Shown here piece by piece: positions 1 to 21,598 of a DNA stretch of 64,000 bases; position 1 is the first letter of the stretch, and the number at the start of each line of letters is the position of its first letter. A program made the translations under genes and the position numbers. Under the pieces are notes generated by a model. It ran no database searches. It had not been told where the DNA came from and was given only the letters and a program-made list of their open reading frames with translations. Origin of the DNA: Candidatus Deferrimicrobium sp. (GTDB lineage: Archaea; Asgardarchaeota; Lokiarchaeia; Helarchaeales; HEL-GB-A); assembly GCA_035531115.1 (NCBI GenBank), contig DATKTP010000204.1, positions 4,155-68,154 of the forward strand, written 5' to 3'.

Positions 1-78
1 GATTTCGTTGATGAAGGGACCCTCTTGCCGATCCTCCTCCATCGAATCCCAATCCTCCGTATCCCAATCTTTTCCCAT
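1..78 (-). CDS. 5' end of an unidentified CDS running off the left edge (MGKDWDTEDWDSMEEDRQEGPFINEI...)
   Basis: ATG at 78-76 on the minus strand, 14 nt after the stop of the UFC1-like gene and preceded by GGAG. The frame stays open to position 1. Too short for the ORF track. Confidence 0.3.
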   Translation of the reverse strand, partial: MGKDWDTEDWDSMEEDRQEGPFINEI

Positions 79-92
79 CTCCAAACCGCCCC

Positions 93-656
93 TTAGATAC
101 CAATACTCGTATGTTCGATCGCATAATAATATCCAAGAATTACAAGAAAATGTGGTATTCCAAATTTGCCATCTTTCCTCCAGCGACGCGATAATTCACC
201 AAAACACTTATCTCCAATGCTTACGTGCGCCTCGCGAGCTTCTCGCTTCGCCCTTGGAAATTCCTGCGGATACATCATCCCTAACCGAATCTCAATGACA
301 CGCCCACGCTCACGACTATTCTTGCCCATGCGAAAGACCGCTTGCCAGATGCGACTATTGCGTGCTACTTGGGTCAATTCATCGTACACCGGAAATCCCA
401 CTTGCGCTATATACTTCTCCTTTAAAAATTCAAAGATTCGCAGTTCTTCTTCGACTCGTTGGCTCCATTGTGGCGATCGCACCCCTAAGGTATTCTCAAA
501 CAAAGGAAGCTTCTCTAGAATGATTGCCCCTTCAATTTTTAATTGATAAGGGGTGAGAAAATGCACATTAATATAATCTTTATGTACATCTATGGAAATT
601 GAGTCAATAAATTTCCCCAGATCGATGCTGTCCTTATCCTCATCTCTGTTGCTCAA
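93..656 (-). CDS. UFC1-like E2 (UFM1-conjugating-enzyme-like) protein with an N-terminal extension
   Basis: 187 aa. By-eye alignment to human UFC1 as I remember it: 'GVRSPQWSQRVEEELRIF' vs 'GPRDRELWVQRLKEEYQSL'. Also 'IGDKCFGELSRRWRKDGKFGIPHFLVILGYYYAIE' vs '[38 protein letters not shown]', with Cys at the catalytic position. 'YPQEFP' is an E2-flap-like motif. Confidence 0.6.
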   Translation of the reverse strand: MSNRDEDKDSIDLGKFIDSISIDVHKDYINVHFLTPYQLKIEGAIILEKLPLFENTLGVRSPQWSQRVEEELRIFEFLKEKYIAQVGFPVYDELTQVARNSRIWQAVFRMGKNSRERGRVIEIRLGMMYPQEFPRAKREAREAHVSIGDKCFGELSRRWRKDGKFGIPHFLVILGYYYAIEHTSIGI

Positions 657-771
657 TTTCCCATCAAAGACCTTTTTATTTTAATAAATTACTTACTTTA
701 ATCCCTTTGATATTTCCCTCTGAGAAAAAAAGGCATAAAATTAGGATTGTAGAAAAATAACGTTCGTTTAT

Positions 772-1041
772 TTATCCAAGCTGATCTGGCGTGCCAATGA
801 CGTAATGGTTTGTTCTATAACTGTCAATTACTTCTCTAACCGTTTTATCAGACCAATTTTGGACTATCGCGCCATCCTTTGTGGCGATTCCAACACGTTG
901 AGGCACGGGCTGAAAAAGTTGTTTAGCGGCTCGCCCACAAAAGTCTCTCATCAATTCTCCGCTTACCGCAACCACTTGCCATTTCTTATTTTCATTCGCT
1001 GCATTCTCAAAGGTTAAAGTTACAATTTCCTCTTCAGACAT
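772..1041 (-). CDS. UFM1-like ubiquitin-fold modifier ending in a single exposed Gly
   Basis: 89 aa with a beta-grasp-like pattern. 'AAKQLFQPVPQRVGIATKDGAIV' vs human UFM1 'AAEEFKVPAATSAIITNDGIGI' (from memory). C-terminus 'VIGTPDQLG*' vs UFM1 'IIPRDRVG|SC'. Sits directly upstream of the UFC1-like gene on the same strand. Confidence 0.6.
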   Translation of the reverse strand: MSEEEIVTLTFENAANENKKWQVVAVSGELMRDFCGRAAKQLFQPVPQRVGIATKDGAIVQNWSDKTVREVIDSYRTNHYVIGTPDQLG

Positions 1042-1222
1042 TTCACCAACTCACCTAATATTTTAATTGTTCAAAAATAATAATTTTACACGAATCTATA
1101 TTAATCAAGGAAACGGTTTCTTTTAAAGATAAGTATTATCGTTATAGTTCCACTGTATGCTTTCAAAAAGTCGAAAATACCCCCCAATTTCGAGCTAAAA
1201 AAAAGAAAAGAAGAAATGAGAA

Positions 1223-1528
1223 CTAATTCAGATAATCGCGAAGATCGCTCTGTGTTTGTTCATCAACCCCTTTGTCAAGATCCCAGATGTCTTTAATTAG
1301 CTTTAAAATTTTTTCTTTATTCAAAGAATTTATTTTCGATCGTAATTTCTTAATAAGTTCAGATTTTGGATAAAATACGATTTGAGATCCATATTTGTTA
1401 TGAACCAATTGATTAATATCTCCTTTTAACAGATAAATTTCAACCTTCTTCGCCAATAACGGATAAATTACTGTATCTTTTTCTTTAAGACCACCAAAAC
1501 TCCGTTTTACATCAATAATTGTATCCAA
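1223..1528 (-). CDS. hypothetical protein
   Basis: 101-aa ORF from a TTG. The frame stays open about 33 codons further upstream (to ~1624) without any ATG/GTG/TTG, so the true N-terminus is uncertain. Confidence 0.4.
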   Translation of the reverse strand: MDTIIDVKRSFGGLKEKDTVIYPLLAKKVEIYLLKGDINQLVHNKYGSQIVFYPKSELIKKLRSKINSLNKEKILKLIKDIWDLDKGVDEQTQSDLRDYLN

Positions 1529-1670
1529 CTTTTGCCCTTTCTCTAAAAGAATATATTTCCCCTTGATTTTATAAGGATTCTTAGTAAAATCATGAACGAT
1601 ATTATTACAAAAATAGATATGAAATCATAGATATGATTCGATGTCGGTTTGATCTAATCTCTTAAAAACG

Positions 1671-2747
1671 CTAAAAAAATGGGATCACAACACCCGTTCT
1701 TCTTATACATTCAACAGCTTTCATTAAATCTCCTGTCATTTTATACGCAAAGGATAGATTCCGCCACGCTGTATTATTGAAAGGTTCAAGTTCAGTTACC
1801 TTCGTCAAACATCTAATTCCTTCGTTATAATCGCCCATTGATACATAGGCAATCCCTAATAAACTCCAAGCTAAAGCCAATTTTGAATCTATTTTAGTAG
1901 CCTTTTTCGAATATTCTATTACTTTTGACCAGTTTCCCAATTGCTGATAATAAACCCCAATATTAACCAATAATAATGCATTTTCCGGACTCAGTTTTAC
2001 AGCTTTTTCATAAGCTTTTACTGTATCATTTTCTTTTCCCAACTCTCTATAGACATTACCTAAATTATTCCAGGCTTCAAAATTTTTTGGATTGACATCG
2101 ATTGCAATTTTAAATAACAATAGGGCTTCTTTTATTTTCCTTTCGTTGATTGCGGAATTCCCTAATCCAACCCATTCATCTGAATTTTTAGGATCAATTT
2201 GTCCTCCCTCCGTAAAAGCTCTTCTCATATGTTCTTTTGCGGCTTTTTCATCACCTTTATTTAGGCATGAAATAGCTAAATTGTATAATACTATCGGAGT
2301 TTCTTTACTTGATTCTTTGGGGATGACTTCAGCTGCTTTTCTCTGATATTCGAGGGCTAAGTCATATTGCCCAATTCGTTGGTATATGCCACTTAGATTA
2401 TTCCACCAAAGGGCTTGATCAGGTTCAAGCTCTGTGGCCTTTTTACAACATTTTAAAGCATCGTTTACTTTACCTAACCTTTCAAATACTATGCCAAGAC
2501 TTGACCATCCCATCGCATCGTCTGGGTACAGCTCAGTAACCTTTTTATAGTACTCGGAAGCCCTTTTGAAATCTCTCAACATCGTGTAACATGTTCCAAG
2601 ATTAAATAATGCGGATTTATTACCTGAATCAATGTTTATTACTTGTTTAAAAGTTTCAACGGCGAGCGTAATATTATTTTGGTTCATATAACTTTGCGCT
2701 TCTTTGAGTAGCTTCTCAATTTCGGGCTTTTCATTTTTATTAGTCAT
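1671..2747 (-). CDS. tetratricopeptide (TPR) repeat protein
   Basis: 358 aa made almost entirely of 34-aa TPR units, e.g. 'AWNNLGNVYRELGKENDTVKAYEKAVKLSPENA' and 'AWSLLGIAYVSMGDYNEGIRCLTKVTELEPFN'. Confidence 0.9.
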   Translation of the reverse strand: MTNKNEKPEIEKLLKEAQSYMNQNNITLAVETFKQVINIDSGNKSALFNLGTCYTMLRDFKRASEYYKKVTELYPDDAMGWSSLGIVFERLGKVNDALKCCKKATELEPDQALWWNNLSGIYQRIGQYDLALEYQRKAAEVIPKESSKETPIVLYNLAISCLNKGDEKAAKEHMRRAFTEGGQIDPKNSDEWVGLGNSAINERKIKEALLLFKIAIDVNPKNFEAWNNLGNVYRELGKENDTVKAYEKAVKLSPENALLLVNIGVYYQQLGNWSKVIEYSKKATKIDSKLALAWSLLGIAYVSMGDYNEGIRCLTKVTELEPFNNTAWRNLSFAYKMTGDLMKAVECIRRTGVVIPFF

Positions 2748-2776
2748 AATTTCTCATCACCTTTTTTTTCTAATAA

Positions 2777-3238
2777 TTATTTTAATCGCCCTAACCTCTC
2801 TCGTATAGATTCATCATCGCCCATTGCGGCCAAAAAGCGATCAAGTCCTATTGTTATCGAATGCCACTCAATTTGAAAATCCTCAAATTTCCCATGTAAT
2901 GGCATATCTGATTCTATATAAAATTCATTATCGAATACCGAAAAGGTCGTTTCCGGTAGTATGTAGTTTAATTCAAGTCCCAACCGAAACAAAGTCAATA
3001 CTTTATCTGCGGGAAAATCACTAAAGTCCATAATCAAACATTTCGTTACTATCCAATCTTCTAAATTTCGAATTTTCAACCGAAATTTCAAATCTTCATA
3101 TTGAAAAACGGCGTCAATTATGGGAACTGTCTCATTATCACCATTTTTAATATCCTGAAATTGATGATTAATTCTCATTTTCTCTAAAAATTTAGAAATT
3201 TTACCTAGGTTCACTTTTTCTCTCTCATAATTAACCAT
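2777..3238 (-). CDS. hypothetical protein (possibly YbjN/T3SS-chaperone-like fold)
   Basis: 153-aa ORF, 29 nt upstream of the TPR gene on the same strand. The fold suggestion rests only on size and a weak pattern. Confidence 0.5.
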   Translation of the reverse strand: MVNYEREKVNLGKISKFLEKMRINHQFQDIKNGDNETVPIIDAVFQYEDLKFRLKIRNLEDWIVTKCLIMDFSDFPADKVLTLFRLGLELNYILPETTFSVFDNEFYIESDMPLHGKFEDFQIEWHSITIGLDRFLAAMGDDESIRERLGRLK

Positions 3239-3500
3239 CCAATCACCTTCTTGTTTATTCCCTCCAAATTCAGGAGTTTTTTGGTGAGATATATATTTAA
3301 TGTTTTGTTTTATAAATTTATTTAAATGATATCAGCTATCGTTGAATAGAAAAAACCTATAAAAGAGCTGGGGATGTACAAAAATGAAAAAGGACAAGAA
3401 ATGGCTCGTGGGAGTGCTCGTTCTAATCAAACCATTATCTAAATTAATTATCTTTATGTGGCGGAGTGTTTTATTAAGAATTAAATAAATATTAGCAGGG

Positions 3501-3593
3501 ATGTACTCTATGGGAAAAGGAAGGTTTGATCGGGTTTTTGGCATTATCCTTATTACTTTGGGTGCTATTGTTACAATCTTCTGTTTCACGTAA
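3501..3593 (+). CDS. possible small membrane peptide (30 aa)
   Basis: ATG-to-TAA ORF 'MYSMGKGRFDRVFGIILITLGAIVTIFCFT' with one hydrophobic helix. Below the track cutoff. Confidence 0.2.
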   Translation: MYSMGKGRFDRVFGIILITLGAIVTIFCFT

Positions 3594-3617
3594 TTCCTAT
3601 GGCCCAGCATTGACCCG

Positions 3618-3731
3618 ATGGTAGGTCCCGAAATATGGGCACAATACCGAAACATTACCCTCACATTTGCCATTATCGGGTGCGTGGTAATGTCCATCGG
3701 GTTTGTGGCTACCGTCCGATCGCTGAAATAA
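3618..3731 (+). CDS. possible small membrane peptide (37 aa)
   Basis: ATG-to-TAA ORF 'MVGPEIWAQYRNITLTFAIIGCVVMSIGFVATVRSLK' with one hydrophobic helix. More plausible than the antisense 121-aa track ORF. Confidence 0.25.
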   Translation: MVGPEIWAQYRNITLTFAIIGCVVMSIGFVATVRSLK

Positions 3732-3797
3732 ATTAGCGGTATGTTCTCGATCTATAAAGGTAATACCTTGATCCAAGCATTAATCTCAATTCCTTTT

Positions 3798-4901
3798 TTA
3801 TATATCTTTAATTAATTTTAAATAGGATATCGATATTCTTGTTTTGTTTTGAGCGGCAGCAAGGATTTTTTGATTATCTAAAGCAGAGATTTGAAATTCA
3901 TTCTGAATGAGGTTAGCGAGATTGACGATTAAAACTTGATAGGAGCAATTAATTCCGAAATTCATTGAAATAATATGCTGTAAGGTCTTTGTTTCTGCGA
4001 ATGTAAATGCTACTGCCGTTTTTTTTGTGATTGTCTTCACTTCAATGAGTTGAATCGTCTTTAAATATTCACAGTTAATTTGATAATCAATAATTATTTG
4101 ATTGAACCTGCCATCAGAATTATCACTAAGAATATATGGAATTGCTTGAGATAGCGGAAGCATTTCTCCATTAATATCTATATGTGAAACATGAGAACCG
4201 GGGGGTAGGAAATGAAAATAATCGGTAACCTTTTCTTGTTCATCAACAGTAAGGTCGCGTTCATTCTTTAGCGTTGGCTTATATTCTTCCACTAACGGGC
4301 TAATTTCATCCCATTGACTCATATTCTCATTTTCAGATTGGTTTTCACCAATTTTCATTCTTTCTAAAAAAATCTTCTGCAATTTTCGAAGCAAAACGGG
4401 ACAATTTACATCAATACAATGTTGTGGGATCGCAGGATACGATTTTAGTTGGGCTCGAATGTTTTCGGGTGGATTACAAAAGAAACTAAGAAGGTCAAAA
4501 GATATATCGGCACCTGTTCCCGGTGGTCGACTTTTTAGTAGATTCTCGGAGTAACTGTTATCTTCTTGTGGAATTTCAACTCCGTCCTTTCCCACTAGGA
4601 AATATTGCCCCCGCCGCCATACCATCCTATATTCTGGATTAAATTCAACTCTATCCTTTCTTACTGCCAAACTAAGAGATTGTAATGAATGGATTACTTG
4701 ATATGGAATTAGAAGAGCGTGTGGACGTCCGTAATACACTTTTACAAGTGTGGCACTCCAGGGAATTAGAAAGCCTACTTCATTTACCTTTTCACTGAAT
4801 TCTTGAGAGAGATAGCGATATGCTATAAATTCTCCAAGATCGCCTATTAGTCCTGATGGTATTTTGAAATTGAACTTTACTGTGATTCTATTCCGCTCCA
4901 T
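3798..4901 (-). CDS. hypothetical protein with weak PD-(D/E)xK-nuclease-like elements
   Basis: 367 aa. N-terminal 'GDLGEFIAYRYL' and C-terminal 'IQLIEVKT' resemble the helix-1 Glu and E-x-K elements of restriction-endonuclease-fold proteins. The match is weak. Confidence 0.55.
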   Translation of the reverse strand: MERNRITVKFNFKIPSGLIGDLGEFIAYRYLSQEFSEKVNEVGFLIPWSATLVKVYYGRPHALLIPYQVIHSLQSLSLAVRKDRVEFNPEYRMVWRRGQYFLVGKDGVEIPQEDNSYSENLLKSRPPGTGADISFDLLSFFCNPPENIRAQLKSYPAIPQHCIDVNCPVLLRKLQKIFLERMKIGENQSENENMSQWDEISPLVEEYKPTLKNERDLTVDEQEKVTDYFHFLPPGSHVSHIDINGEMLPLSQAIPYILSDNSDGRFNQIIIDYQINCEYLKTIQLIEVKTITKKTAVAFTFAETKTLQHIISMNFGINCSYQVLIVNLANLIQNEFQISALDNQKILAAAQNKTRISISYLKLIKDI

Positions 4902-5092
4902 AATAATTGATTGATTACCTGAATTTTTTTAATATATTTAATTATTTAGGTAAGATCGCTCTTGTAGATTTTTTCAATCCAACTTCTGAAAAAATTTCAC
5001 CCATTGAAAAAGATACAACCCAATTTATCTTTTATTAGAAAAATTAAATAAATTAGTAGAAATTTGATATTATATTACAAATTTTTCCAATA

Positions 5093-5575
5093 AAGAGGGG
5101 AATAAAAATAAACTCAAGGCACGAAAAAATAAAGATATATCAAAAAAAGCTTTCATACCCATTTTCAGAGGAAAAAGCATCAGAAATTATCGATATTTAT
5201 TGGATTTATGCGGAGAATTACGCTATTAACTACCCAGCTTCCACTCCAAGAAGTGGAAAGTGGCTTGTATTCGTAAATAAAAGTAAGATAGACGAAGTAT
5301 GGAAAAAAATAAAAATAGCGACAGAGAAAGGAGAATTGAGTGATTGTGCAAAAGTTTCCACGGCATGCCCGAACTCTAATGCGCAAGATCCGGATAAATA
5401 TGTAATTTGTATTTATACATACGATTCCGATGATATTGATGATGTGAGAAGAGTTCGTGAAAAATTGAGAGATTTAGGTATTACCCATAAAATACCTTAT
5501 AAAACAGATAACGCGACAATGGAAGGGAATTATTTGGTTCGCGGTCATAAAAGAATCAGTAAATATTTTGAATAG
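5093..5575 (+). CDS. DUF1917 (C11orf68/Bles03-like) domain protein; start codon undetermined
   Basis: The conserved pattern 'STPRSGKWLVFVNKSKIDEVWKKIKIATEKGELSDCAKVST...YVICIYTYDSDDIDDVRRVREKLRDLGI...IPYKTDNAT' lies largely upstream of the track start (TTG 5336). The frame is open from 5093, but no ATG/GTG/TTG occurs before 5336. Confidence 0.7.
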   Translation, partial: KRGIKINSRHEKIKIYQKKLSYPFSEEKASEIIDIYWIYAENYAINYPASTPRSGKWLVFVNKSKIDEVWKKIKIATEKGELSDCAKVSTACPNSNAQDPDKYVICIYTYDSDDIDDVRRVREKLRDLGITHKIPYKTDNATMEGNYLVRGHKRISKYFE

Positions 5576-5661
5576 ATATTATTTAAAAATCTTAATGAGA
5601 GAATAGGCAAATATTTAAAACAGTAGGGAGAAGTAGAATAGACAAATTAGGGAGCGATTTT

Positions 5662-6687
5662 ATGTATTATTGCAATATTTGTAAAAAGGAGATCACGAGA
5701 GGAGAATTCTTTTATTCAATGGATAAGTTTGGTAGGGCCCTTTGCAGAGCGCATCAAGAAGCGGAAAGAAGATCTCAAGGGATCTCAGGTCAAAATACAG
5801 AACCGGCAGGTGTAATGGAGGAGCTAGAACCGTCCGAATCTGCTTCTGAAGTGATAAGTGCCTCAGATGAAACCACTAACGATGCGGCGCCAAAGAGCCG
5901 TTGGAGATCGCTCGGCAATACCTTTGTAAAAATGGGCAAAGGGATCGTAAAGGGCGTACGGAAAATTGCGGATTCTTCAAAGAGACGCACTCAAACGCGT
6001 AAATGGAAAGAATCGATTCTTCGTCGGATGACAATAACTCAATTGGAACAGCTCTGTTTTGAGAAAGGAGTCAGTACCAAAAAGAAGGTATTAGAGGAAG
6101 ATAAACGCTCTGATGAGTTCTATTGGAAAGAGGTAAAATGTTCACAAGGCGATCTCGTTGCCCGATTGAAGAGCAAAGTCCCATTAGATATCATAATTTC
6201 CTTCGCTGAGCGGAATTATGTAAATATAAAAGATATCCTTGTCGATATACACCGCACGGAAGCCGCATGGGAATTAAAAGCCCTCGCTGAGAGAAGCAAT
6301 AAAAATGGGGGTAGTATATTACTAGAACTTGAAAAGATAATACGAGAATTCGTTCCTTTGCGCCGATATGATCAAGAACTGTATTACCAAGATACGCTTG
6401 CCCAGTTTTTGCGATCTAAGTTTCATGATACGGAGATAGAAGTCTCTCGCGGTTCTACGCGCCCTGATATTGTCGTGAAAGGCATCGCTATTGAGGTCAA
6501 AGGGCCGACCAGTAATAGAGATTTAGATACCATTGCTAATAAATGCCTTCGATATAGACGATACTTCCCAAGCGGGTTGATATGTGTCCTATTTTCTGTC
6601 AATGTTACTCCACAGTACTACGAAGATTGGTTAAAGGCAATGCAGGAGACGCACCCAGACGTGAGAGTCATAAAGATTCCCCTCTGA
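5662..6687 (+). CDS. zinc-ribbon + PD-(D/E)xK nuclease-like protein
   Basis: 341 aa. N-terminal 'CNICKKE...CRAH' Zn-ribbon. C-terminal 'FLRSKF...EIEVSRGSTRPDIVVKGIAIEVKG' gives the E...D...E-x-K restriction-endonuclease-fold motif. Confidence 0.7.
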   Translation: MYYCNICKKEITRGEFFYSMDKFGRALCRAHQEAERRSQGISGQNTEPAGVMEELEPSESASEVISASDETTNDAAPKSRWRSLGNTFVKMGKGIVKGVRKIADSSKRRTQTRKWKESILRRMTITQLEQLCFEKGVSTKKKVLEEDKRSDEFYWKEVKCSQGDLVARLKSKVPLDIIISFAERNYVNIKDILVDIHRTEAAWELKALAERSNKNGGSILLELEKIIREFVPLRRYDQELYYQDTLAQFLRSKFHDTEIEVSRGSTRPDIVVKGIAIEVKGPTSNRDLDTIANKCLRYRRYFPSGLICVLFSVNVTPQYYEDWLKAMQETHPDVRVIKIPL

Positions 6688-7040
6688 AAGAATTGATAAT
6701 TAGTCTGTTTTTATCTTTACACCTTTTGCATTTTTCTTTAGTTTCTTTAAAATTTCCTTACTCCTAGCGTCTAGTGGATTATCCTGAATTTTTAAAATAA
6801 CTAGATTCGAAAGCTGGGCAAAGGACTCGATAAATCTGGAACGGGATCTTGTGGTAGTACTCTTCGCCTCGGTAGGCTTGAGAAAAAAATAGCTATATTA
6901 GGCGATGATGCAAAAGATAATATTTTAACCTATTTATAACAAGAATAAAATATTTAGAAGGCAAAAAATAGAAAAAAAATATTAAAACTATTTAATGAGG
7001 GAGACCTTATCTACGATTCTTCAGTAAAAATCTAGTAAAT

Positions 7041-8135
7041 CTAACTTTCACTAGACATTTCAACTTTGGAAAGCAAATCATCTAAAATAGTTTGTGATTT
7101 AGAACTATTATTTTTATTTTTATTGGACTCAGCATCAAAAGTAGTAGATTTATCAGAAGATACCTCCGGCTTGATTGAATTAGTGGCAATATCTGTTTTT
7201 TGATTTTCAGGAATTTGGATATTATATTCCATTGAGACAACTGCTTTTTCAGCCATATGTTCTAAATGAGTTAGAAATCTATCTAGTTTGCTTTCTGACC
7301 ATAATTCATTAACTATTGCTTCTATATTATAATTCAATTTGACATTCAAGCTATTTTCTGAATCTAAGCTGGGTAATAATTTTTCAACAGGTGCTGGACT
7401 TTCCTCTGAAAACTTTATTTCAGTATTAGTATCGGGGGAGGGCACTTTAGTTTCTATTTCTTCCTCATGAATAGCGTTTTCTTCATGTTTTTCATTTTCA
7501 GAGGAATGATTAGCAGGATTTTTGAAATCTATCAATTCAAATGAGTCACCGAATGCTCGGATTAATCTAGCTTCAACACAAAGATCAATCCAAAATTTAG
7601 TAGTTACATCGAAGAAGTCATCGTCTTTTATTTCTATATCGGACTCAAGCAATTTCAATCGTAATTTCTCAGAAAGCCCCTTTAAAGTACCTTTACCATC
7701 TGGTTCATTTACAACTAATCCTTTTATAAGCTCGGGAATCGGTTGAGATTCAATCAATGCTCTAAGATCAGTACTTGCATCTGCCCCAAAAATCCATTGA
7801 TGGATCATATTACGTGTCTCCAATTTCCGGTCATAGTAAATTGTCTCACCACTTTTTTTGCGTGTAAGGAAATTTAAATTCACTAAGTAGTTCAATATTC
7901 GTGTAACAGTTTGAGGTCCTATACCTGACTTATCTGAAATTTCTTTTGGGTTCATAGCGCGTTTTTCCTTGCCTAAGGTCATTAATATGGTTTTTGCCTT
8001 GGGCCATGTTATAGATTTGGTCGAAGGTAATTTAATTTGAGATTTTATGGTGGTTTTTTTTATAGCCTTGGTAGAAGTACCACCGGAACTCCCACCAGCA
8101 GGCTGTGTAGGTAAAGTTTGTGTAATTTTTGACAA
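7041..8135 (-). CDS. winged-helix DNA-binding protein with acidic/Ser-rich C-terminal half
   Basis: 364 aa. 'MNPKEISDKSGIGPQTVTRILNYLVNLNFLTRKKSGETIYY' is a typical wHTH. Divergently oriented to the AAA+ operon. Confidence 0.65.
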   Translation of the reverse strand: MSKITQTLPTQPAGGSSGGTSTKAIKKTTIKSQIKLPSTKSITWPKAKTILMTLGKEKRAMNPKEISDKSGIGPQTVTRILNYLVNLNFLTRKKSGETIYYDRKLETRNMIHQWIFGADASTDLRALIESQPIPELIKGLVVNEPDGKGTLKGLSEKLRLKLLESDIEIKDDDFFDVTTKFWIDLCVEARLIRAFGDSFELIDFKNPANHSSENEKHEENAIHEEEIETKVPSPDTNTEIKFSEESPAPVEKLLPSLDSENSLNVKLNYNIEAIVNELWSESKLDRFLTHLEHMAEKAVVSMEYNIQIPENQKTDIATNSIKPEVSSDKSTTFDAESNKNKNNSSKSQTILDDLLSKVEMSSES

Positions 8136-8329
8136 TTTTATGTCACCTAAATATAAAAAAGATATCGCCTATATTTAAATGTTATTGCCTACTAAACCAA
8201 AGTATTGCGCGGTACTATGTTAATAATATAGGACAAAAGTTTTAAAATTGTTTTTTTTGTTAAATTTCGAAGAATTTTTATTTATAATTCTAATAATAAT
8301 TATAGCGTATTTGAGTGAGATGATAGAAT

Positions 8330-9439
8330 TTGTCTCCAGATCCTAAAGAAAATATTAAAAGAATGATTTTAGAAGCACAGAAAACAGAGAAAATACCAGA
8401 GAAATTATGGTATTTAGATTATTTTATAAGAGATCCATTTGATATTCAAGATGAAAGTAAAATAAAAAATTTCTATCACAATCAAGAGGAGATTCAAGAG
8501 GAAATAGCAAAAGATATTGGATATGCTATTAAAGGAACGATAGGTAATATTGCAATTGTCGGAAATCAGGGGATGGGAAAAACAATTTTTTTCGACTTAT
8601 TAAGTTTAGTAATTTCTGATTTAAAACAGACTAATAGAGAGTTTGAGGCAGTAAAATTTGTAACATGCCGGGAGATTGATGAGGAAAATATTAGTAATTT
8701 CATGGATAATAATGTACTAGTCTTAGATGATTGTACAGTTTTTGAAGAAGCAATCTTTTATATACAACGACTTAGAAAAACGAATCATTTGATCATTTCA
8801 TTCTGGAATCCAATATCCTTAGAACCAATAATTTATGAAGAAAAGTATAGATCAATTTTTGATAAACTACTCTTTTTGAAACCAATCGAAGATCTGGATC
8901 AGTTAATTCTTTTTTTAGAATTAAGATTAAAATTTGTAAATTCTACAAAGAATCTATCCGATTTGATAAATAATGATATGCTCTCTTTGATTCTAGAATA
9001 CTCAAAAGGAATACCCCGTGCTATCCTTGAAATTTGTCAATATATTTTTGTAGAAAAATTTAGGAGGGGGGTAAGCAGTATTAAAGAAGAATTTATCAAC
9101 CTTTGTTTAGAAAATCTGGGATACAAACTTTCTGGAGGAGAACTTCCGAATGCTATTAAAAAAACGGCCAAGGAAATTTGTAACTATTATATACAATATC
9201 AAAATTATATCAAATCAACCGACATTAAAGAGGGAATAGGAAGAGATATATCTACTATAAATAAACATTTAACTATACTTGAAAGTCAAAAATTAATCGA
9301 AAGAAGCGAATATGATGGGCGAGGGAAACATTTCCGCCCTAAATTTGCATTATTTGTTCAACTTACAGGGTATAGAGATAAGAAAGGAATTATAGATGAG
9401 ATTTTAATTAAACTTAAGACAATTAAAAGCCAATTATAA
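8330..9439 (+). CDS. Orc1/Cdc6-like AAA+ ATPase with C-terminal winged helix (divergent)
   Basis: 369 aa. Walker A 'GNQGMGKT' and Walker B 'VLVLDD'. Lid/sensor-2-like 'SKGIPRAILEIC' (compare Cdc6 'GDARxAldLL'). C-terminal wHTH 'INKHLTILESQKLIERSEYDGRGKHFRP'. Confidence 0.7.
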   Translation: MSPDPKENIKRMILEAQKTEKIPEKLWYLDYFIRDPFDIQDESKIKNFYHNQEEIQEEIAKDIGYAIKGTIGNIAIVGNQGMGKTIFFDLLSLVISDLKQTNREFEAVKFVTCREIDEENISNFMDNNVLVLDDCTVFEEAIFYIQRLRKTNHLIISFWNPISLEPIIYEEKYRSIFDKLLFLKPIEDLDQLILFLELRLKFVNSTKNLSDLINNDMLSLILEYSKGIPRAILEICQYIFVEKFRRGVSSIKEEFINLCLENLGYKLSGGELPNAIKKTAKEICNYYIQYQNYIKSTDIKEGIGRDISTINKHLTILESQKLIERSEYDGRGKHFRPKFALFVQLTGYRDKKGIIDEILIKLKTIKSQL

Positions 9440-9458
9440 TATATAGTGATGAAATTAT

Positions 9459-10430
9459 ATGACAAGGAATACCAGGTATGCCTATTTTTTTAAAATTCGT
9501 TATAAAAAATTAGATGATGAAAATTTTTTATTGAATCAATTAAATCAATTCGAAAAAGTATCGTATGAAAAAATAAAACAAAAAAGATTATTAGATAGAA
9601 ATACCGGACCGGTAAATTCACTATTCGATTTTACACATTGGCCAGAATATCACGCGATCGAAGCAAAATTTATCTTATCACGTAATACAACTAATATCGC
9701 CACGACGATAAGCTTCTATAACTCAATAATTCCTAAGCAGTTTCAGCATTTTAATTATTCCTCGGAAAAAAGTGTAATACCCGAAAAATTATATGATAAG
9801 AGTTTTGCTTCTCTTATATTCTTCACTTCTCAGAAGATGATATGTGTATTATTTATTCATGATGTTTTTGCTACGGAACAAAATGCTCAAAAAATTTTTG
9901 ATAAATTATTTATCAAAAAATTAACAGGAGGCAGTCTAAGTTCCCCACAAAAAAGGTTACAAGATAATACTCAAAATAAAGCTCAAGATGATAAATTATA
10001 TGAATTATTAAAGTTTAAAGAGGAAGACAAAAAAAAGTTGGCATATTATATAGAAGAAAATAATCTAGGATATGTATTTACCTTTCAAAACACCGAAGGT
10101 GGGGTAAAATCACATCACACGGCCAAAAAAGGAAATATAAAGAAAACAGAAAAATGGGAAAAATTACGAGAAGAATTTGAAAAAAATCAATGGGATAGCC
10201 TCGGACTTGGGATTGGAAAAGAAGAAGATCCGAACTATAACACATTATTTTATGAGAGTAAGCCTAAATCATGTGTAACATTTGATTTTCTGGATAAAAA
10301 TAAAGAAGATGAAATAATAAATTCTTTAAATATATTCATCTCTCATTTACAAAATTCTAAAGAGTTCCAAATTTCACATAGGAAGAAGCAAAAAGGAGAT
10401 TTACGAAGATGGGTTGGTTTTATCGGATAA
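9459..10430 (+). CDS. hypothetical protein (no recognisable domain)
   Basis: 323-aa ORF starting 19 nt after the AAA+ gene on the same strand. Confidence 0.6.
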   Translation: MTRNTRYAYFFKIRYKKLDDENFLLNQLNQFEKVSYEKIKQKRLLDRNTGPVNSLFDFTHWPEYHAIEAKFILSRNTTNIATTISFYNSIIPKQFQHFNYSSEKSVIPEKLYDKSFASLIFFTSQKMICVLFIHDVFATEQNAQKIFDKLFIKKLTGGSLSSPQKRLQDNTQNKAQDDKLYELLKFKEEDKKKLAYYIEENNLGYVFTFQNTEGGVKSHHTAKKGNIKKTEKWEKLREEFEKNQWDSLGLGIGKEEDPNYNTLFYESKPKSCVTFDFLDKNKEDEIINSLNIFISHLQNSKEFQISHRKKQKGDLRRWVGFIG

Positions 10431-10491
10431 TAATTATCCTTAACTGATTAATTACTTAATTAATTAGTTAATTTAAGAGGGATTCGAATTA

Positions 10492-12297
10492 ATGCCACAA
10501 AAACAAAAAATACAAGAAAAAAAGGAAGTTACAAGTAATAAGATTCAAAATAAAAAGTTTTTCTCAAAACCTAAAATTCTTTTAATAGATTTGCCTCCTT
10601 CTGTCTTTGATAGACTCCAAGAATCAGGGTTTAATGTAGTTAAGGGGACATTCGGTAGCCGTTATCAAGTGGAAAAAAGTTCTAATTATTTTCCAATTTA
10701 TATTGATATTGAATTGCCAAATTTTGAAGAACAAGAAATTATATTTATTGATTTAAAAGAACAAGAAATATGCAAATCTCCCAAGGGAGAAAGATTTTCA
10801 CCTTCAGGAGAAATTGGTATGTGGGCAAAATGCAATTTTGGTTATATTAATCCACGTCCTCTTGCTATGCGTATAGTCCGCGATAGTTTTAATCGAATTT
10901 TAAACTATGGAGGCATTTTCGTACTTTTTATATATCCACCTACTATACAAAAAATTAAAAAGGGAAGGGATGTTGAGAACTTTTATGGTTTTGAATTAAC
11001 TGATTCCGAGGATTTGGAAATAAATGATTTATGTTTCTTGAATTGTAGTGATATGCTTGATATAAAAGTAGCTAACGGTAAAGAAGTGAAAGTATTAGAT
11101 TTAAATCCATCATTTAAGTATATATTAAAAAAATTCATGAATGATTTCATTTATGGTGTGATTTTTAATATTAAACCCTATTATGAGGAAGAAGCTGAAT
11201 TTATTCCCCTCTTATTAAATAAATATAATTTTATTATAGGGGGTATTTTAAAACTAAAAAAAGCGGAAGGTTTCATTGTGATTTTGCCACAACTCACAAT
11301 TGAAAAAAAGAATGACTTAATTTATTTATTAGTAACTCAAGCATTACCTGAAATGAGTCCTTCTCTTTTTCCTTTTCATGAGGGGGATAAATGGATTAAG
11401 CGCGGAGACTATAACTTAAAAACGATTCAGACCTTAGAAGATGAATTAATTAAATTAAAAATCGATTATGATAAAAGAATAAATATTATAAAAGATAAAA
11501 TTAACAAGCAGCGAGAAAAATTCAGATTTCTTTATGGATTAATCACAGAAACAAATGCTAAATTAGTTGAATATGTTAAGACCGGTTTTCAAGTTCTTGG
11601 ATTTGGAGATGTCCGAGATATTGATAAAATAGCTGAAGGAACCAATCCATCCATAATAAGACAAGAAGATATCCAAATTCATGATTTAAGTCCAACTCTT
11701 TTAATAGAAATTAAAGGAATAACTGGTAATCCCACCGATGAAGACTGCCTTCAAGTAGTAAAATATATACCAAGGAGAATGAAAGAATGGCAACTGACTG
11801 ATGTAAAGGGGATTACTATTATTAATCATAAGAGGCATATACCCGCCCTGATTAGAGGTGAAGCTTTTACAGACCAGCAGATTCAGGATGCAATTCATCA
11901 GAATATACTACTTTTAACGACATGGGATTTATTTAAATTAATAAAAGGCTTCATAGATCATAATTGGAAGCTTAAAAATATCCAAAATCTATTCTATGAA
12001 ACCGGTAAAATATCTCTATTACCGAAAAATTATATATTAATTGGTAAAATCGAAAAAATTTGGAATCAAGTCAACGTATATGGAGTCAAAATAACTGAAA
12101 ATATTGTTATTAAAATTGGAGACCATTTAGGATATATAATTGATTCAGGATTTTTAGAAGAAGATATTGCTTCACTTCAAATAAATAAAATGGATGTTGA
12201 AGAAGCAAAATTGAATGATCAGGTTGGAATAAAGACGATTTATTCAGAAGGAAATCTTAAAATAGGAGATAGCGTTTATAAAGTAAATAAATGTTGA
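10492..12297 (+). CDS. multidomain protein: N-terminal alpha/beta region, coiled coil, PD-(D/E)xK nuclease-like core, C-terminal beta-barrel
   Basis: 601 aa with GAGGG before the ATG. Coiled coil 'TLEDELIKLKIDYDKRINIIKDKINKQREK'. Nuclease-like 'GFQVLGFGDVRDID...EDIQIHDLSPTLLIEIKGITG'. The C-terminal 'IGDHLGYII...VGIKTIYSEGNLKIGDSVYKV' resembles a translation-factor domain-II type barrel. Confidence 0.7.
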   Translation: MPQKQKIQEKKEVTSNKIQNKKFFSKPKILLIDLPPSVFDRLQESGFNVVKGTFGSRYQVEKSSNYFPIYIDIELPNFEEQEIIFIDLKEQEICKSPKGERFSPSGEIGMWAKCNFGYINPRPLAMRIVRDSFNRILNYGGIFVLFIYPPTIQKIKKGRDVENFYGFELTDSEDLEINDLCFLNCSDMLDIKVANGKEVKVLDLNPSFKYILKKFMNDFIYGVIFNIKPYYEEEAEFIPLLLNKYNFIIGGILKLKKAEGFIVILPQLTIEKKNDLIYLLVTQALPEMSPSLFPFHEGDKWIKRGDYNLKTIQTLEDELIKLKIDYDKRINIIKDKINKQREKFRFLYGLITETNAKLVEYVKTGFQVLGFGDVRDIDKIAEGTNPSIIRQEDIQIHDLSPTLLIEIKGITGNPTDEDCLQVVKYIPRRMKEWQLTDVKGITIINHKRHIPALIRGEAFTDQQIQDAIHQNILLLTTWDLFKLIKGFIDHNWKLKNIQNLFYETGKISLLPKNYILIGKIEKIWNQVNVYGVKITENIVIKIGDHLGYIIDSGFLEEDIASLQINKMDVEEAKLNDQVGIKTIYSEGNLKIGDSVYKVNKC

Positions 12298-12445
12298 ATG
12301 CAGTTAATAATTGATTTTAAAAAATTAACTTACGGTAATAATTCCGATCATATTTTTATTCTCACGAAATAGTTGAACCTTTAAAAATAAGAATTTAAAA
12401 TTAGAGAAGTAAAATTTTGTAAAAAAGAGAAAAATAGGGAGTTGA

Positions 12446-14866
12446 TTACTTCCCAGGGGAAACTTCCTCGAGGATTTTGGGAACGACGATTTTATCCTTG
12501 TATTGGCTGATGAATTCATAAATGGGATTGCGCCAGTAGCCGGGATCGGGATACATGCGGTTCTTGAAAGTGTTGGGACTCGGGATTTCGGGTGAAAGTT
12601 CTTCGCCTGCTTGTTTTTTCCGCGCCCGGATCTCCAGAATTTTCTCTTCTTGGAGGTTTTTAGGCAACATCTGAAAATTCTTAAACTGATAACCGAAGAT
12701 AGCTCGCCCTTGGGTCGAAGATCGAATCTCGTCAGCAATGCCCCCAGTTCCGCCTGTTTCAGATCGTACGGCTTCAGAAGCTGGGATTTCGCCTTCAATT
12801 TCGACATGGTCTCCTGTTTGCTCGGTGTTTACCACTTTACCACGATGTTGGGTGATGATAGTCATAATGGTTCCCATAAATTCAGCGGGCGTTTTTAGAT
12901 CAATGCGTAAAATAGGCTCGAATAATGCAGGATTTGCAGTTAAGAAGGTAATATTCAAGCCTGAAAAGGTCATAACAAATATTTGAGCAGAACGCGTATG
13001 GGAAGGATCTTCATGAATTGTTGCATCTGTAATCACAACTTTGATCCCCATAGCTGGCTCTTTTGCAAGGGCTGACGAAAAGACAAAGTCTCTAAAAGTT
13101 CCGATGATATATCCTTTAATCCGATCTAATCTCTGAACTCCAAGTGTCCCATTTACTAGGATATTCGTACCTTCAATAGCCCAAATTCGTCTTGCTTCTT
13201 TTTTATCCCAGCCTGCATCTCGTAAAAAGGCAGCCCGATCCTTCTCCTCTTGCATCTCTTTGACTTTTCCATCCCTAATTAGTTTGATGGTCTCTTCATT
13301 CAATGGTTCCATATACATTTTCAGTTTATTGTGGCCTTCTGAGCATTTCGTATTGATTTCTATGCCTTTATTTAAAGTGGTTTCATGGTAGACTGTAATT
13401 GGAGTCCCCACCTTAATCGGAATCTCATCTTGGATTCGTTCGATGAGAATTTCAAGTTGAAGGGGATCGATACCGCTCAGAATGTATTCGCCTGATTCCT
13501 CATTCTTCCGAAAAGTCGCGGTAGGGTCGGCAAGTACCCATTTTCTGACTACATCGCCGAGTTTCCCTAGATCCTTGGGATCTTCGGGTTTTATACTGCG
13601 GCTCACGACGGGATCTGAGACATAAAGAATTTTTTCAAATCCTGGAATCTCATCCTTCATCTCAAGGGCCACAAAAGTTTCTCCAGCTGGTTGTATATCC
13701 GGTAATTCCATTGCAAATAAATTCCCTGCGGGAACTTCATCTACTGGTAACAGGCTATCTATTTCCATAACACCTAATCGTCGCACACGTGCCGTTCGTT
13801 TTGCATTTAATAAGTAAATTTCATCCCCTTGCTTCAAGGTTCCACTCCAAATCCGTCCAATAATCGTCGGTCTTTTCGATTTTGGATGAATAAAAATTTT
13901 CGTAATCATCCCTAAGAGTGGTCCGTTTTTATCTACATTAATCAGGGAGTATGCCATGTATTTCTCTGGATCATCCTTAATGGTTGCGGGATCTTTAATA
14001 TCTAACCCCTGCTTGATATCGCCACTCCATAGTTTCAGCATTCGGTATTTTTGAGCCTCCAGCGGGCTTGGAAGATGCTTAATGATTACCTCAAGTAAAG
14101 CTTCGTCTAATGGTAAATTCTTTTTTAACCATTTGATCGGCTCTTTCGTATTTTCTCTAATAGCTTCCGCATATTTTTCCAAGACTAACTTTGCATTCAT
14201 ATCCTTTTGTTTTAATTGGGGAATAGTGAAAGCCCACCCATCTTTTGCGGACCCAAAAACGACATGTCCGAGATCGGGGTTGAGAATCCATTTCTCTTTA
14301 AAGGGCTCTGGAGCAGCCTGCTTTATCTGTACATTAACCTCCTGGATAATTTGCTGAAATTGCTGAATAATTTTATCAGGTGGTAATTTTAACTCCATTA
14401 TTAACCGGTCGACTTTATTTATGAATAGAATAGGTCGACACCATTCTTCTCCCACGCTGAGACCAATATTTGTAATCGTTTGTGTCATACATCCTTCTAA
14501 AGCATCAACCAGAATAACCGCTCCATCACTCCCGCGTAGAGCTCTGGATACTTCTCCAGTGAAGGAGATATGACCTGGAGTATCGTTGATCTCCAGCAAA
14601 TAAGACTTCCCTTCGAATTCATAATTCAGCAAAGCGACACTTGTGAAAATTGTAATGCCCCGTTCCTGCTCCTCATCATCATAATCAGTTAAACGGCGCT
14701 CGCCTTCATAATCATGGCTTAAAAGCCCTGCCCGTCCCATCAAATAATCACACGCAGTGCTTTTTCCATGGTCAATATGCGCCGTAATTGAGAAGATTCG
14801 CCGTAATTCTAACGGGTGCGATTTAATCATTTTTTGAATTTCTTCTACATTCTTTACTTTGACCAT
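12446..14866 (-). CDS. divergent elongation factor 2-family GTPase (aEF-2 paralog-like) with C-terminal extension
   Basis: 806 aa. G1 'AHIDHGKST', G3 'DTPGHISF', G4 'NKVD'. The domain IV loop 'IHEDPSHTRSAQI' departs from the canonical diphthamide loop 'HEDAIHRGxxQ'. About 45 extra C-terminal residues. Confidence 0.9.
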   Translation of the reverse strand: MVKVKNVEEIQKMIKSHPLELRRIFSITAHIDHGKSTACDYLMGRAGLLSHDYEGERRLTDYDDEEQERGITIFTSVALLNYEFEGKSYLLEINDTPGHISFTGEVSRALRGSDGAVILVDALEGCMTQTITNIGLSVGEEWCRPILFINKVDRLIMELKLPPDKIIQQFQQIIQEVNVQIKQAAPEPFKEKWILNPDLGHVVFGSAKDGWAFTIPQLKQKDMNAKLVLEKYAEAIRENTKEPIKWLKKNLPLDEALLEVIIKHLPSPLEAQKYRMLKLWSGDIKQGLDIKDPATIKDDPEKYMAYSLINVDKNGPLLGMITKIFIHPKSKRPTIIGRIWSGTLKQGDEIYLLNAKRTARVRRLGVMEIDSLLPVDEVPAGNLFAMELPDIQPAGETFVALEMKDEIPGFEKILYVSDPVVSRSIKPEDPKDLGKLGDVVRKWVLADPTATFRKNEESGEYILSGIDPLQLEILIERIQDEIPIKVGTPITVYHETTLNKGIEINTKCSEGHNKLKMYMEPLNEETIKLIRDGKVKEMQEEKDRAAFLRDAGWDKKEARRIWAIEGTNILVNGTLGVQRLDRIKGYIIGTFRDFVFSSALAKEPAMGIKVVITDATIHEDPSHTRSAQIFVMTFSGLNITFLTANPALFEPILRIDLKTPAEFMGTIMTIITQHRGKVVNTEQTGDHVEIEGEIPASEAVRSETGGTGGIADEIRSSTQGRAIFGYQFKNFQMLPKNLQEEKILEIRARKKQAGEELSPEIPSPNTFKNRMYPDPGYWRNPIYEFISQYKDKIVVPKILEEVSPGK

Positions 14867-20853: not shown

Positions 20854-20854
20854 G

Positions 20855-21598
20855 ATGGATAATTCGCATAAAAATCCGGTCGATGAACCGACGAACATGA
20901 AGGAAAGTACAGATAAATTCTCAAAGATCTTCTTCTTTATCATTCCATTTACGGTGCCTCTTATAGTTACCTTAATGACATATTTATTTTATCCCGTGAC
21001 ACTTGCTTCTAATCTTGTCTGGCTCCCCCTCCTGATTATTTATTGGGTAACAATCTGGTGTTTTACATTTCTTTATAGATATAAACGTGGGGGTGTTTTT
21101 AACAAAGAACGCTATAAATTAACGTTAAAATTAAAAGGAGACCGTTTATGGTTACAATATTTACTTGTTTATGGACCATTTGTCTACTCCATTCCATTAT
21201 TTTTTATTAATTATGCTACAGAATTGTCAGTTAATATGTTCTTAGTAATTCTGCTTGCGTCTATCATAAATGGCCCCTCCGAGGAGACCTTCTGGAGAGC
21301 GTGTTTAGACGATGCTGGAAAAAAAGCGGGAGTTTCTGAAAAGAAGCGCCTCATATTTGCACCAATTGCTTTTGCACTTTGGCATACCGCGTTTATCATT
21401 CATCTACTTCCATGGGATCAAACCTGGATTCTATGGTGGGCTGGAACAATGTTGATGACATGGTCAAGTGGGATTATATGGATGTGGGTTATGCATCGCT
21501 CTGGTAGATTAATGCCTCAAACCATTTATCATGCGTGTGCAAACTTTTTAAGCATATTTCCATTATTTCTTGTCACCGTTCTTCATATTTATTTTTAA
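20855..21598 (+). CDS. CPBP-family (CAAX/Abi) intramembrane glutamic protease
   Basis: Motifs 'SEETFWR' (EExxxR), 'FALWH' (FxxxH) and 'YHACAN' (HxxxN) in a polytopic membrane protein. ATG at 20855, 1 nt after the upstream stop (the track start is GTG 20846). Confidence 0.85.
   Translation: MDNSHKNPVDEPTNMKESTDKFSKIFFFIIPFTVPLIVTLMTYLFYPVTLASNLVWLPLLIIYWVTIWCFTFLYRYKRGGVFNKERYKLTLKLKGDRLWLQYLLVYGPFVYSIPLFFINYATELSVNMFLVILLASIINGPSEETFWRACLDDAGKKAGVSEKKRLIFAPIAFALWHTAFIIHLLPWDQTWILWWAGTMLMTWSSGIIWMWVMHRSGRLMPQTIYHACANFLSIFPLFLVTVLHIYF

Follow-up and report, generated by a model that had tools for sequence, protein, structure and literature searches.

The DNA analyzed here, which we call the window, is a stretch of 64,000 nucleotides (nt) of contig DATKTP010000204.1 (GenBank assembly GCA_035531115.1). 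Three minus-strand genes lie in window 1-1041: an open reading frame (ORF) of 89 amino acids (aa), an ORF of 187 aa, and an ORF cut by the window edge. An earlier note, made from the sequence alone, had read them as a ubiquitin-like protein (Ubl), an E2 conjugating enzyme, and a third gene of an archaeal UFMylation cassette. All of these ORFs are present, and the third starts 14 nt past the stop codon of the second. We consider it likely that the window holds the promoter-proximal end of a five-gene cassette of a Helarchaeales archaeon, dedicated to conjugation of a UFM1-type Ubl, which we call the tag. The proposal draws on the folds of the proteins, their homologies, the alignment of their catalytic residues, and the conserved linkage of their genes. 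The interpretation of the earlier note is supported, with corrections: searches that might have overturned it returned a Ubl fold for the small protein, an E2 fold for the 187-aa protein, and an E1-like gene in the neighborhood.

The five-gene cassette and its host

The genes for the tag and for the 187-aa protein (E2a) each have at least 28 homologues, 47 to 94% identical to them, and those that are named come from metagenome-assembled genomes (MAGs) of Helarchaeota/Promethearchaeota. Because of these homologues, and because the gene order is repeated across many independent contigs, we regard both as real genes and not chance ORFs. The source contig is k141_2578251 of ENA ERZ27256847, a Helarchaeales (Asgard) contig of 109,515 bp to which we gave the locus label L010. 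The reverse complement of window 1-10000 is found in L010 without a mismatch, and L010 is therefore the true leftward continuation of the window. A profile search with orthologues of the third gene also retrieved a protein, P0090, whose first 26 residues are those of the truncated gene product in the window. On L010, the genes follow one another in the order tag (89 aa), E2a (187 aa), JAB (425 aa), E1 (274 aa), and E2b (173 aa), with intergenic gaps of 115, 14, 23, and -1 nt. From E2a onward, the genes are translationally packed; the 115-nt spacer keeps the tag gene apart from them. The tight spacing of 14 nt suggests that E2a and the JAB gene are cotranscribed. The Ubl and E2 genes had been described in the earlier note as one operonic unit; their linkage is indeed conserved, but the spacer with its T-tracts splits the tag gene from the tightly packed four.

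The region 5′ of the tag gene may hold a promoter and a ribosome-binding site: it has A/T-rich boxes and, about 10 nt 5′ of the ATG, a Shine-Dalgarno-like motif, GGTGA. Within the 115-nt spacer, T-tracts (TTATTTTTCT and CCTTTTTTTCTC) are followed by the A/T-rich TTTATTAAAATAAAAAGG, and a spacer of 63 to 116 nt is present likewise between the tag and E2a genes of loci L001, L003, and L005. Judging from its composition, it may combine a partial archaeal terminator with an internal promoter. The homologues of E2a have ATG at the position where the E2a gene of the window has its TTG start.

The host belongs to the Helarchaeales, within the Asgard archaea. At NCBI, the contig's protein P0090 bears the name of a bacterium, "Candidatus Deferrimicrobium sp." Mis-binning of the contig is probable, since its relatives are all Helarchaeota and since it carries an archaeal histone gene, located 3′ of the cassette on the opposite strand. 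A cyanobacterial origin, suspected from the palindrome GCGATCGC, was rejected because the motif occurs just twice in the window.

The tag and the enzymes of the cassette

The AlphaFold2 (AF2) model of the tag, with a predicted local distance difference test (pLDDT) score of 94.4, is a beta-grasp fold. In a Foldseek search of the PDB, UFM1 chains accounted for seven of the top nine matches, with target-normalized template modeling (TM) scores of 0.70 to 0.85 and root mean square deviations (rmsd) of 1.8 to 4.2 Å. The top UFM1 match was 6h77_Q (E, 9.6e-4; TM, 0.85; rmsd, 1.8 Å). Target-normalized TM scores for Caldiarchaeum ubiquitin, ubiquitin, SUMO, NEDD8, and ISG15 ranged from 0.38 to 0.71, and Caldiarchaeum ubiquitin itself stood at rank 13 (TM, 0.65). 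The earlier note had named ThiS, MoaD, and SAMP-type carriers as families whose match would count against a Ubl of the UFM1 kind; there is no entry for any of these, or for Urm1, among the 50 tag fold matches listed. When the tag family was aligned with human UFM1 by hhalign, the two were in register, with AAKQLF..VGIATKDG paired with AAEEFK..AIITNDG and G89 paired with G83. Scanned against Pfam, NCBIfam, and PADLOC, the tag and E2a gave no meaningful match. The assignment of the tag to UFM1 is supported by its modeled fold, by its gene context, and by a weak in-register profile alignment, not by membership in a sequence profile.

The tag ends in VIGTPDQLG followed by the stop codon; as the earlier note had read it, this is a single terminal glycine that is already exposed. 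The PDQLG end is invariant across the tag homologues, half of which (14 of 28) carry residues beyond the glycine, in tails of 1 to 58 residues. Tails beyond the glycine also occur in the more distant tags of loci L018 (LG-N), L013 (LG-DDF), and L015 (LG-G). Tails of this kind would be expected if the tag were processed by cleavage and then attached to other proteins through its glycine. In the window genome, the tag is predicted to be synthesized ready for activation.

For E2a, the AF2 model has a mean pLDDT of 64.5 and a predicted TM score of 0.68; the core scores 58 to 87 per 10-residue block, and residues 1 to 35 score below 50. All of the top 29 Foldseek matches in the PDB were UFC1, from human and Leishmania (E, 1.7e-5 to 1.6e-3; target-normalized TM, 0.59 to 0.70). 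Generic E2s entered the list from rank 30, at an E value of 1.3e-2 or weaker and a TM of at most 0.44. An exhaustive hidden Markov model search of 1.84 billion cluster representatives yielded a wider E2a family, A3, of 29 proteins at an E value of ≤1e-3. The A3 profile matched human and Leishmania UFC1 at E values of 1e-10 to 1e-9 (42 to 44 bits), compared to 7.6e-6 (28.8 bits) for the best non-UFC1 E2. The Pfam UFC1 model (PF08694) matched 8 of the 29 members at an E value of ≤0.01, the best at 4.2e-7, and UQ_con matched 2, more weakly than UFC1 did. One protein that is 47% identical to E2a, P0028, reached 26.7 bits with Pfam UFC1, for which the gathering cutoff is 25. The sequence tie of E2a itself to UFC1 is thus transitive, running through the wider family, and is otherwise a matter of modeled structure. 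Together, these results support the assignment of an E2 fold, specifically a UFC1-like one, to E2a, as proposed in the earlier note.

The only cysteine of E2a, C151, is invariant in 29 homologues and aligns with UFC1 Cys116 in both hhalign and MAFFT alignments. The loop around this cysteine, cited in the earlier note as a UFC1 feature, holds up for the cysteine but not for the lysine: it reads G-D-K-C, and the lysine is not aligned. Both other motifs quoted there, the W.QR..EE helix (W64-E71) and KFGIPHFLVILG, are present. E2a has no HPN motif; in UFC1, TAK takes the place of HPN (title of PDB entry 9i9m). Residue 46 of E2a aligns with residue 9 of UFC1, leaving an N-terminal extension of about 37 to 45 residues without counterpart in UFC1, shorter than the 60 or so residues first estimated. 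Residues D12, I20, D23, Y28, I29, and F33-L34-T35-P36 of the N terminus are invariant. Conservation in a segment modeled with low confidence typically marks a region that becomes folded upon binding a partner. Since the E1 of the cassette lacks the tail of UBA5, the extension is a candidate docking element. Because its gene is linked to those for the UFM1-like tag and the UBA5-like E1, E2a is a candidate acceptor of the tag, as a thioester, from E1.

Some members of A3 (P0063, P0077, P0080, and P0074) are fused to other domains, namely, Ras/Roc/Arf small GTPase, Roadblock/LC7, HEAT repeat, and zinc ribbon domains. Pfam matches were tallied per domain family, and their assignment to individual proteins was deduced from the family alignment and, for HEAT in P0080, from an NCBI name. 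These fusions may hint at a tie between UFC1-like E2s and GTPase signaling.

The second E2, E2b, matches Pfam UFC1 at an E value of 2.3e-4. Its one cysteine, at position 125, aligns with the catalytic cysteine of UFC1, and its C terminus is basic (RRSKRKSK).

The gene for the E1 lies two genes 3′ of E2a, so that the search for an E1-like gene nearby proposed in the earlier note had a positive outcome. The protein matches Pfam ThiF at an E value of 1.5e-42. When E1 was searched with phmmer against PDB sequences, its best solved relative was UBA5 (91 bits), followed by E. coli ThiF (79), MoeB (65), and MccB (61), with canonical E1s at 46 or below; for the orthologue in L003, UBA5 was again the best match (92 versus 63). 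Scores were 39 bits with Citrobacter BubCD and about 50 bits with CBASS E1-E2 models. Cys214 of E1, in VPC214GASLATT, aligns with the cysteine of UBA5 GVCAASLPTT and lies within the adenylation domain, and the usual zinc motif is made up of C183, C186, C268, and C271. E1 carries no rhodanese domain. By alignment, E1 is a putative UBA5-like enzyme that consists of the adenylation domain only, with Cys214 as the putative catalytic residue.

The third gene, for which an E1, an E3, or a protease had been envisaged, is predicted to encode a JAB/MPN+-like metalloprotease; the last of these guesses was probably right, and the gene is not an E1, UFL1, or UFSP gene. In seven orthologues, E46, H103-K-H105, S112, and D115 (window-genome numbering) are invariant, and the spacing from H to S is one residue below that of the canonical JAMM motif, E...H-x-H-x(n)-S-x-x-D. 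The best solved match, a weak one, was the Caldiarchaeum Rpn11 homologue 6fjv (E, 0.017); matches to Pfam Prok-JAB (E, 0.05 to 0.15) and to PADLOC BilC (E, 4.5e-4) were also weak. One JGI annotation in the family reads RPN8/RPN11, and a large protein search with the JAB profile returned orthologues without Pfam annotation only.

Profile searches and hhalign detected no relatives of the C-terminal region of the JAB protein, which spans about 270 aa. The idea, formed by eye, that it contains ubiquitin-like domains was dropped after hhalign comparisons with the tag family and with ubiquitin were negative. An amphipathic motif, L(L/Q)PI(F/L)KNF..FL..I..I, occurs twice in this half of the protein, at residues 315 and 366, and is followed by a Lys/Glu-rich linker and a conserved end, LDY(F/Y)(I/T), which is LDYFI in the window genome. 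This arrangement looks like a set of tethered docking motifs.

From these components we infer the chemical steps, the division of labor between E2a and E2b, and the kind of target. E1 would adenylate Gly89 of the tag and then bind the tag as a thioester on Cys214. The tag would be handed to Cys151 of E2a, to Cys125 of E2b, or to both, and the E2 would transfer it onto lysines of target proteins. The JAB metalloprotease would strip the tag from targets and, in lineages whose tags have tails beyond the glycine, would also mature the precursor. On lysines of tagged proteins, the expected remnants would be DQLG after AspN digestion or TNHYVIGTPDQLG after trypsin digestion.

Distribution and genomic neighborhood

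At least six contigs of Helarchaeales carry the cassette: L001, L003, L005/6, L007, L008 (Hel_GB_A), and L010/11. A Freyarchaeota/Jordarchaeia MAG (L018) has the five genes in the same order as the window genome, and a Njordarchaeales MAG (L013/14) has the set in a rearranged form, in the order JAB, E1, E2, and tag. The cassette is also present on contig L015. Identity between lineages is low, 28 to 41% for the tag and about 24 to 36% for the E2, which argues that the linkage is old within Asgard archaea and not the result of recent transfer. A scan of GTDB species-representative genomes with the narrow E2a profile, A1, gave three loci, the search patterns being specific to Helarchaeales. In the Hel_GB_B lineage, E2a, JAB, and E1 are kept together with two further UFC1-like genes, and there is no adjoining tag gene. 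These extra genes encode proteins of 276 to 278 aa and about 177 aa and lie beyond the E1 gene, on the other strand. One genome can, by its gene content, hold three UFC1-like paralogues. Coordinates of these and the other features are collected in Table 1.

Table 1. Positions of the cassette genes and of neighboring features (window coordinates unless a locus label is given)
Feature	Position	Strand	Remarks
JAB/MPN+-like gene, first 26 codons of 425 aa	1..78	-	ATG at 78; protein begins MGKDWDTEDWDSMEEDRQEGPFINEI
Spacer E2a/JAB gene, 14 nt	79..92	-	GGGGCGGTTTGGAG; GGAG immediately 5′ of ATG
E2a gene (187 aa, UFC1-like E2)	93..656	-	TTG start; ORF, Foldseek, and profile A3
Spacer tag gene/E2a, 115 nt	657..771	-	Read from sequence; function putative only
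Tag gene (89 aa, ubiquitin-like)	772..1041	-	ATG start; ORF, AF2 model, and Foldseek
Region 5′ of tag gene	1042..1222	-	A/T-rich boxes TTAAAATATT, GGTGA; putative promoter/ribosome-binding site, from sequence
Block between tag gene and EF-2 paralogue, ~11.4 kb	1042-12445		Includes a 101-aa ORF
TPR gene in the block	1671-2747		
MarR-like gene in the block	7041-8135		
NB-ARC/NACHT-like ATPase gene in the block	8330-9439		
EF-2 paralogue	12446-14866	-	
LCM and Rce1-like genes	19597-21598	+	8-nt overlap
JAB gene, part outside the window	L010 10079-11278		Whole gene, L010 10001-11278
Archaeal histone gene	L010 12694-12906		Opposite strand, 3′ of cassette
Extra UFC1-like genes, Hel_GB_B type	L009 7341-8762; L004 3912-5333	-	
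AAA ATPase, SMC-domain, or long unannotated genes 3′ of cassette	L003 5699-10816; L005 9712-12558; L004 5560-7580; L008 10685-12331; L009 8911-10593		
Profilin-like gene	L003 1320-1694		Just 5′ of tag gene

A paralogue of elongation factor 2 (EF-2) lies directly 5′ of the tag gene in L001 (a 94%-identical relative), in L005/6, and in Hel_GB_A (L008). In the window, the two genes are about 11.4 kb apart. Since they adjoin in those relatives, the intervening block looks inserted. It holds a 101-aa ORF, genes for a TPR protein, a MarR-like protein, and an NB-ARC/NACHT-like ATPase, and several further ORFs without a Pfam match.

On the other side of the cassette, several Helarchaeales genomes encode an AAA ATPase with a single domain and a length of about 545 aa. 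L003 and L005 continue with an SMC-domain gene of about 1,180 aa, and L004 with a long unannotated gene. We did not count the AAA ATPase and SMC genes as members of the system. The histone gene occupies that spot on the window's contig, so their linkage to the cassette probably reflects synteny and not function.

Two further observations concern neighboring genes. In the Helarchaeota MAG that carries L003, a profilin-like gene (Pfam Profilin; E, 8.6e-4, below the cutoff) lies just 5′ of the tag gene. In the window, the genes for a leucine carboxyl methyltransferase (LCM) and an Rce1-like CAAX prenyl endopeptidase overlap by 8 nt; their functions are reminiscent of eukaryotic protein C-terminus processing.

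Known systems and competing explanations

Several results weigh against a UFM1-type cassette. For the tag, the Foldseek E value for UFM1 is modest, at about 1e-3, and other Ubls come next, at TM scores of 0.6 to 0.7; beta-grasp folds are difficult to discriminate. Pfam Ufm1 (PF03671) matches none of the 28 tag homologues at E values up to 10, so that the UFM1-like nature of the 89-aa protein, as the earlier note had it, is borne out by fold and not by profile search. Neither A2, a profile of close Helarchaeales tag homologues, nor A6, which is A2 widened with the tags of L018, L013, and L015, retrieves UFM1 among PDB sequences. In hhalign, the match between the tag family and human UFM1 is weak, with P values of 0.003 to 0.03, the best of them (0.003) obtained with A6 over 68 columns. 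For E2a, the model is of moderate quality, with its mean pLDDT of just 64.5, and Pfam UFC1 gives the window's own protein no match at E values up to 10. The narrow profile A1, built from close Helarchaeales homologues, matches nothing among PDB sequences, so that the link to UFC1 is visible only after the family is widened to A3. The TAK motif is not kept: T106-A107-K108 of UFC1 aligns with E142-A143-H144 of E2a, and H144 is invariant solely within the Helarchaeales subfamily. E1 stops at residue 274, after its CPAC zinc motif, and lacks the C-terminal tail in which UBA5 has its sequences for UFM1 interaction and UFC1 binding. The protease is of the JAB type and not of the UFSP type; its identity depends on weak E values plus the motif, and a seven-sequence JAB profile found no significant match in the PDB. 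Finally, there is no Pfam match to UFL1, DDRGK1, or UFSP in 40 ORFs of the window and in the 7-kb left flank (about 71 kb in all; significance cutoffs for the Pfam scan of the window ORFs, 1e-3 to 1e-6).

The cassette can be compared with the eukaryotic UFM1 pathway (UFM1, UBA5, UFC1, UFL1-DDRGK1, and UFSP1/2) component by component. The likenesses are a beta-grasp tag whose single C-terminal glycine aligns with Gly83, and which many homologues make as a short-tailed precursor; an E2a with a UFC1-like fold, the W.QR..EE helix, no HPN, and an aligned cysteine; and an E1 that is nearest to UBA5 and has its catalytic cysteine inside the adenylation domain. Unlike the eukaryotic genes, the Asgard genes form an operon-like cluster with two UFC1-like paralogues. 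E2a is extended by about 40 aa at its N terminus and has E-A-H in place of T-A-K, the 274-aa E1 lacks the UBA5 tail, a JAB/MPN+ protein stands in place of the UFSP cysteine protease, and the surroundings of the cassette have neither a UFL1 nor a DDRGK1 gene. Identity to the eukaryotic proteins is about 16 to 19%, and the tag escapes detection by Pfam Ufm1. This is not a complete eukaryote-type pathway. By analogy, the cascade logic of tag, E1, and E2 appears UFM1-like, and the build resembles that of a prokaryotic operon for Ubl, E1, E2, and JAB, as in Caldiarchaeum or Bil.

That build raises the alternative that we are looking at a generic prokaryotic operon of the Caldiarchaeum, Bil, or Bub kind, with no special tie to UFM1, the resemblances being due to deep superfamily homology or convergence. 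The ubiquitin operons of Caldiarchaeum subterraneum and of Asgard archaea encode ubiquitin, E1, E2, a RING E3, and an Rpn11-like JAB protein (PMC6043591). The cassette shares with them an archaeal operon of Ubl, E1, E2, and JAB, the JAB protein there serving in both maturation and deconjugation, and the bacterial Bil (BilABCD) and Bub operons likewise bring the four functional classes together. Both the gene set and the layout fit those systems, as does a protease of the JAB type that weakly matches the Caldiarchaeum Rpn11 homologue, its best solved match, and BilC. No sequence profile ties the tag to Ufm1, and the E1 also matches the CBASS E1-E2 models and Citrobacter BubCD. We nevertheless consider this explanation unlikely, given that all three core components are independently closest to a UFM1-pathway member among solved structures. 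For the tag, UFM1 is the top fold match, at a TM of 0.85, compared to 0.65 at rank 13 for Caldiarchaeum ubiquitin. UFC1 reaches 44 bits with the E2a family, compared to no more than 28.8 for other E2s, heads the Foldseek list through rank 29, and is detected by Pfam in 8 of 29 family members, compared to 2 weaker matches to UQ_con. For the E1, the figures are 91 bits for UBA5 and 79 for ThiF. In the terms of the Caldiarchaeum and Asgard ubiquitin operons, the E2s of the cassette are UFC1 type and not UBC type, its E1 is UBA5 type, there is no RING E3, and the JAB protein has a C-terminal region of about 270 aa. The Bil and Bub operons differ in that the tag and both E2s of the cassette have no PADLOC match, in the low scores of the cassette E1 (39 bits with BubCD and about 50 with CBASS E1-E2, versus 91 with UBA5), and in that the cassette belongs to an archaeal host and a conserved chromosomal context.

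It is improbable, in our view, that the cassette is an antiviral or stress defense module that tags invader proteins in the manner of Bil and is not a housekeeping modifier. Bacterial Ubl/E1/E2/JAB operons are known in defense, the JAB protein matches BilC weakly, and in the window genome an NB-ARC/NACHT-like ATPase is encoded in the 11-kb variable block that adjoins the cassette. Against this, the cassette occupies a stable chromosomal site by the EF-2 paralogue in several Helarchaeales genomes, its 47 to 94% identity between genomes is consistent with vertical descent, it occurs in three Asgard lineages, and the tag and both E2s go unmatched in PADLOC. A sulfur-carrier system of the ThiS, MoaD, or SAMP/Urm1 type, in which a ThiF-family enzyme thiocarboxylates the tag for cofactor or tRNA thiolation, would fit an E1 of the ThiF/MoeB family (79 bits with E. 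coli ThiF) and a beta-grasp tag with a C-terminal glycine, but is very hard to credit, since two single-cysteine E2-like proteins and a JAB protein that sulfur carriers do not need are co-encoded, no ThiS, MoaD, or Urm1 is among the 50 tag fold matches listed, the tag ends in one glycine and not in Gly-Gly, and the E1 ends at residue 274 without a rhodanese domain.

A UFM1-type conjugation cassette is still the explanation that we consider likely. As for what it may modify, the EF-2 paralogue directly upstream in several Helarchaeales genomes and the basic tail of E2b are weak pointers to translation, and neither amounts to evidence.

The published record bears on how much of this is new. A 2023 phylogenomic study (PMC10183829) stated that UFM1, UFC1, and UFSP2 are confined to eukaryotes and reported UFL1 and DDRGK1 homologues in Asgard archaea, and it concluded that the Asgard UFL1 and DDRGK1 predate UFM1 and may act without it. 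Kostlbacher et al. (PMC12962969; bioRxiv 2024, Nat Microbiol 2026) then reported that, despite low sequence similarity, structure-based searches detect Ufm1-like proteins in nine clades of Asgard archaea and, among prokaryotes, nowhere else. This agrees with the statement in the earlier note that UFM1-pathway homologues had been noted in Asgard archaea. Our 89-aa tag is likewise detectable by structure and not by sequence, and it probably belongs to their set. The main text of that study does not mention UFC1, UBA5, or UFL1, and the linked E2s, E1, and JAB gene are not described there. Our searches of full texts turned up neither an Asgard UFC1 nor a UFMylation cassette, with subscription journals and supplementary tables lying outside the search. 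The tag was probably known already; the linked UFC1-like E2s and the architecture of the cassette are apparently new.

What the locus adds is a tie, across three Asgard lineages, between a Ufm1-like gene and genes for UFC1-like E2s, a UBA5-like E1, and a predicted deconjugating protease. A tentative reading, to which we give somewhat less than an even chance, is that the cassette is a surviving prokaryotic core of the UFM1 machinery. UFM1, UBA5, and UFC1 would have been inherited jointly by eukaryotes as an Asgard operon module, the role of JAB would later have passed to UFSP, and transfer would have been independent of an E3, or assisted by E2a/E2b, before UFL1-DDRGK1. If true, this would overturn the published claim that UFC1, and until 2024 also UFM1, is a eukaryotic invention, and it would yield a minimal four-enzyme system for ancestral UFMylation in vitro. 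If the biochemistry holds, the E1/E2/tag core of UFMylation would be older than eukaryotes, its origin would be testable with four small recombinant proteins, and the swap from JAB to UFSP and the later recruitment of UFL1-DDRGK1 would become steps of eukaryogenesis that can be dated.

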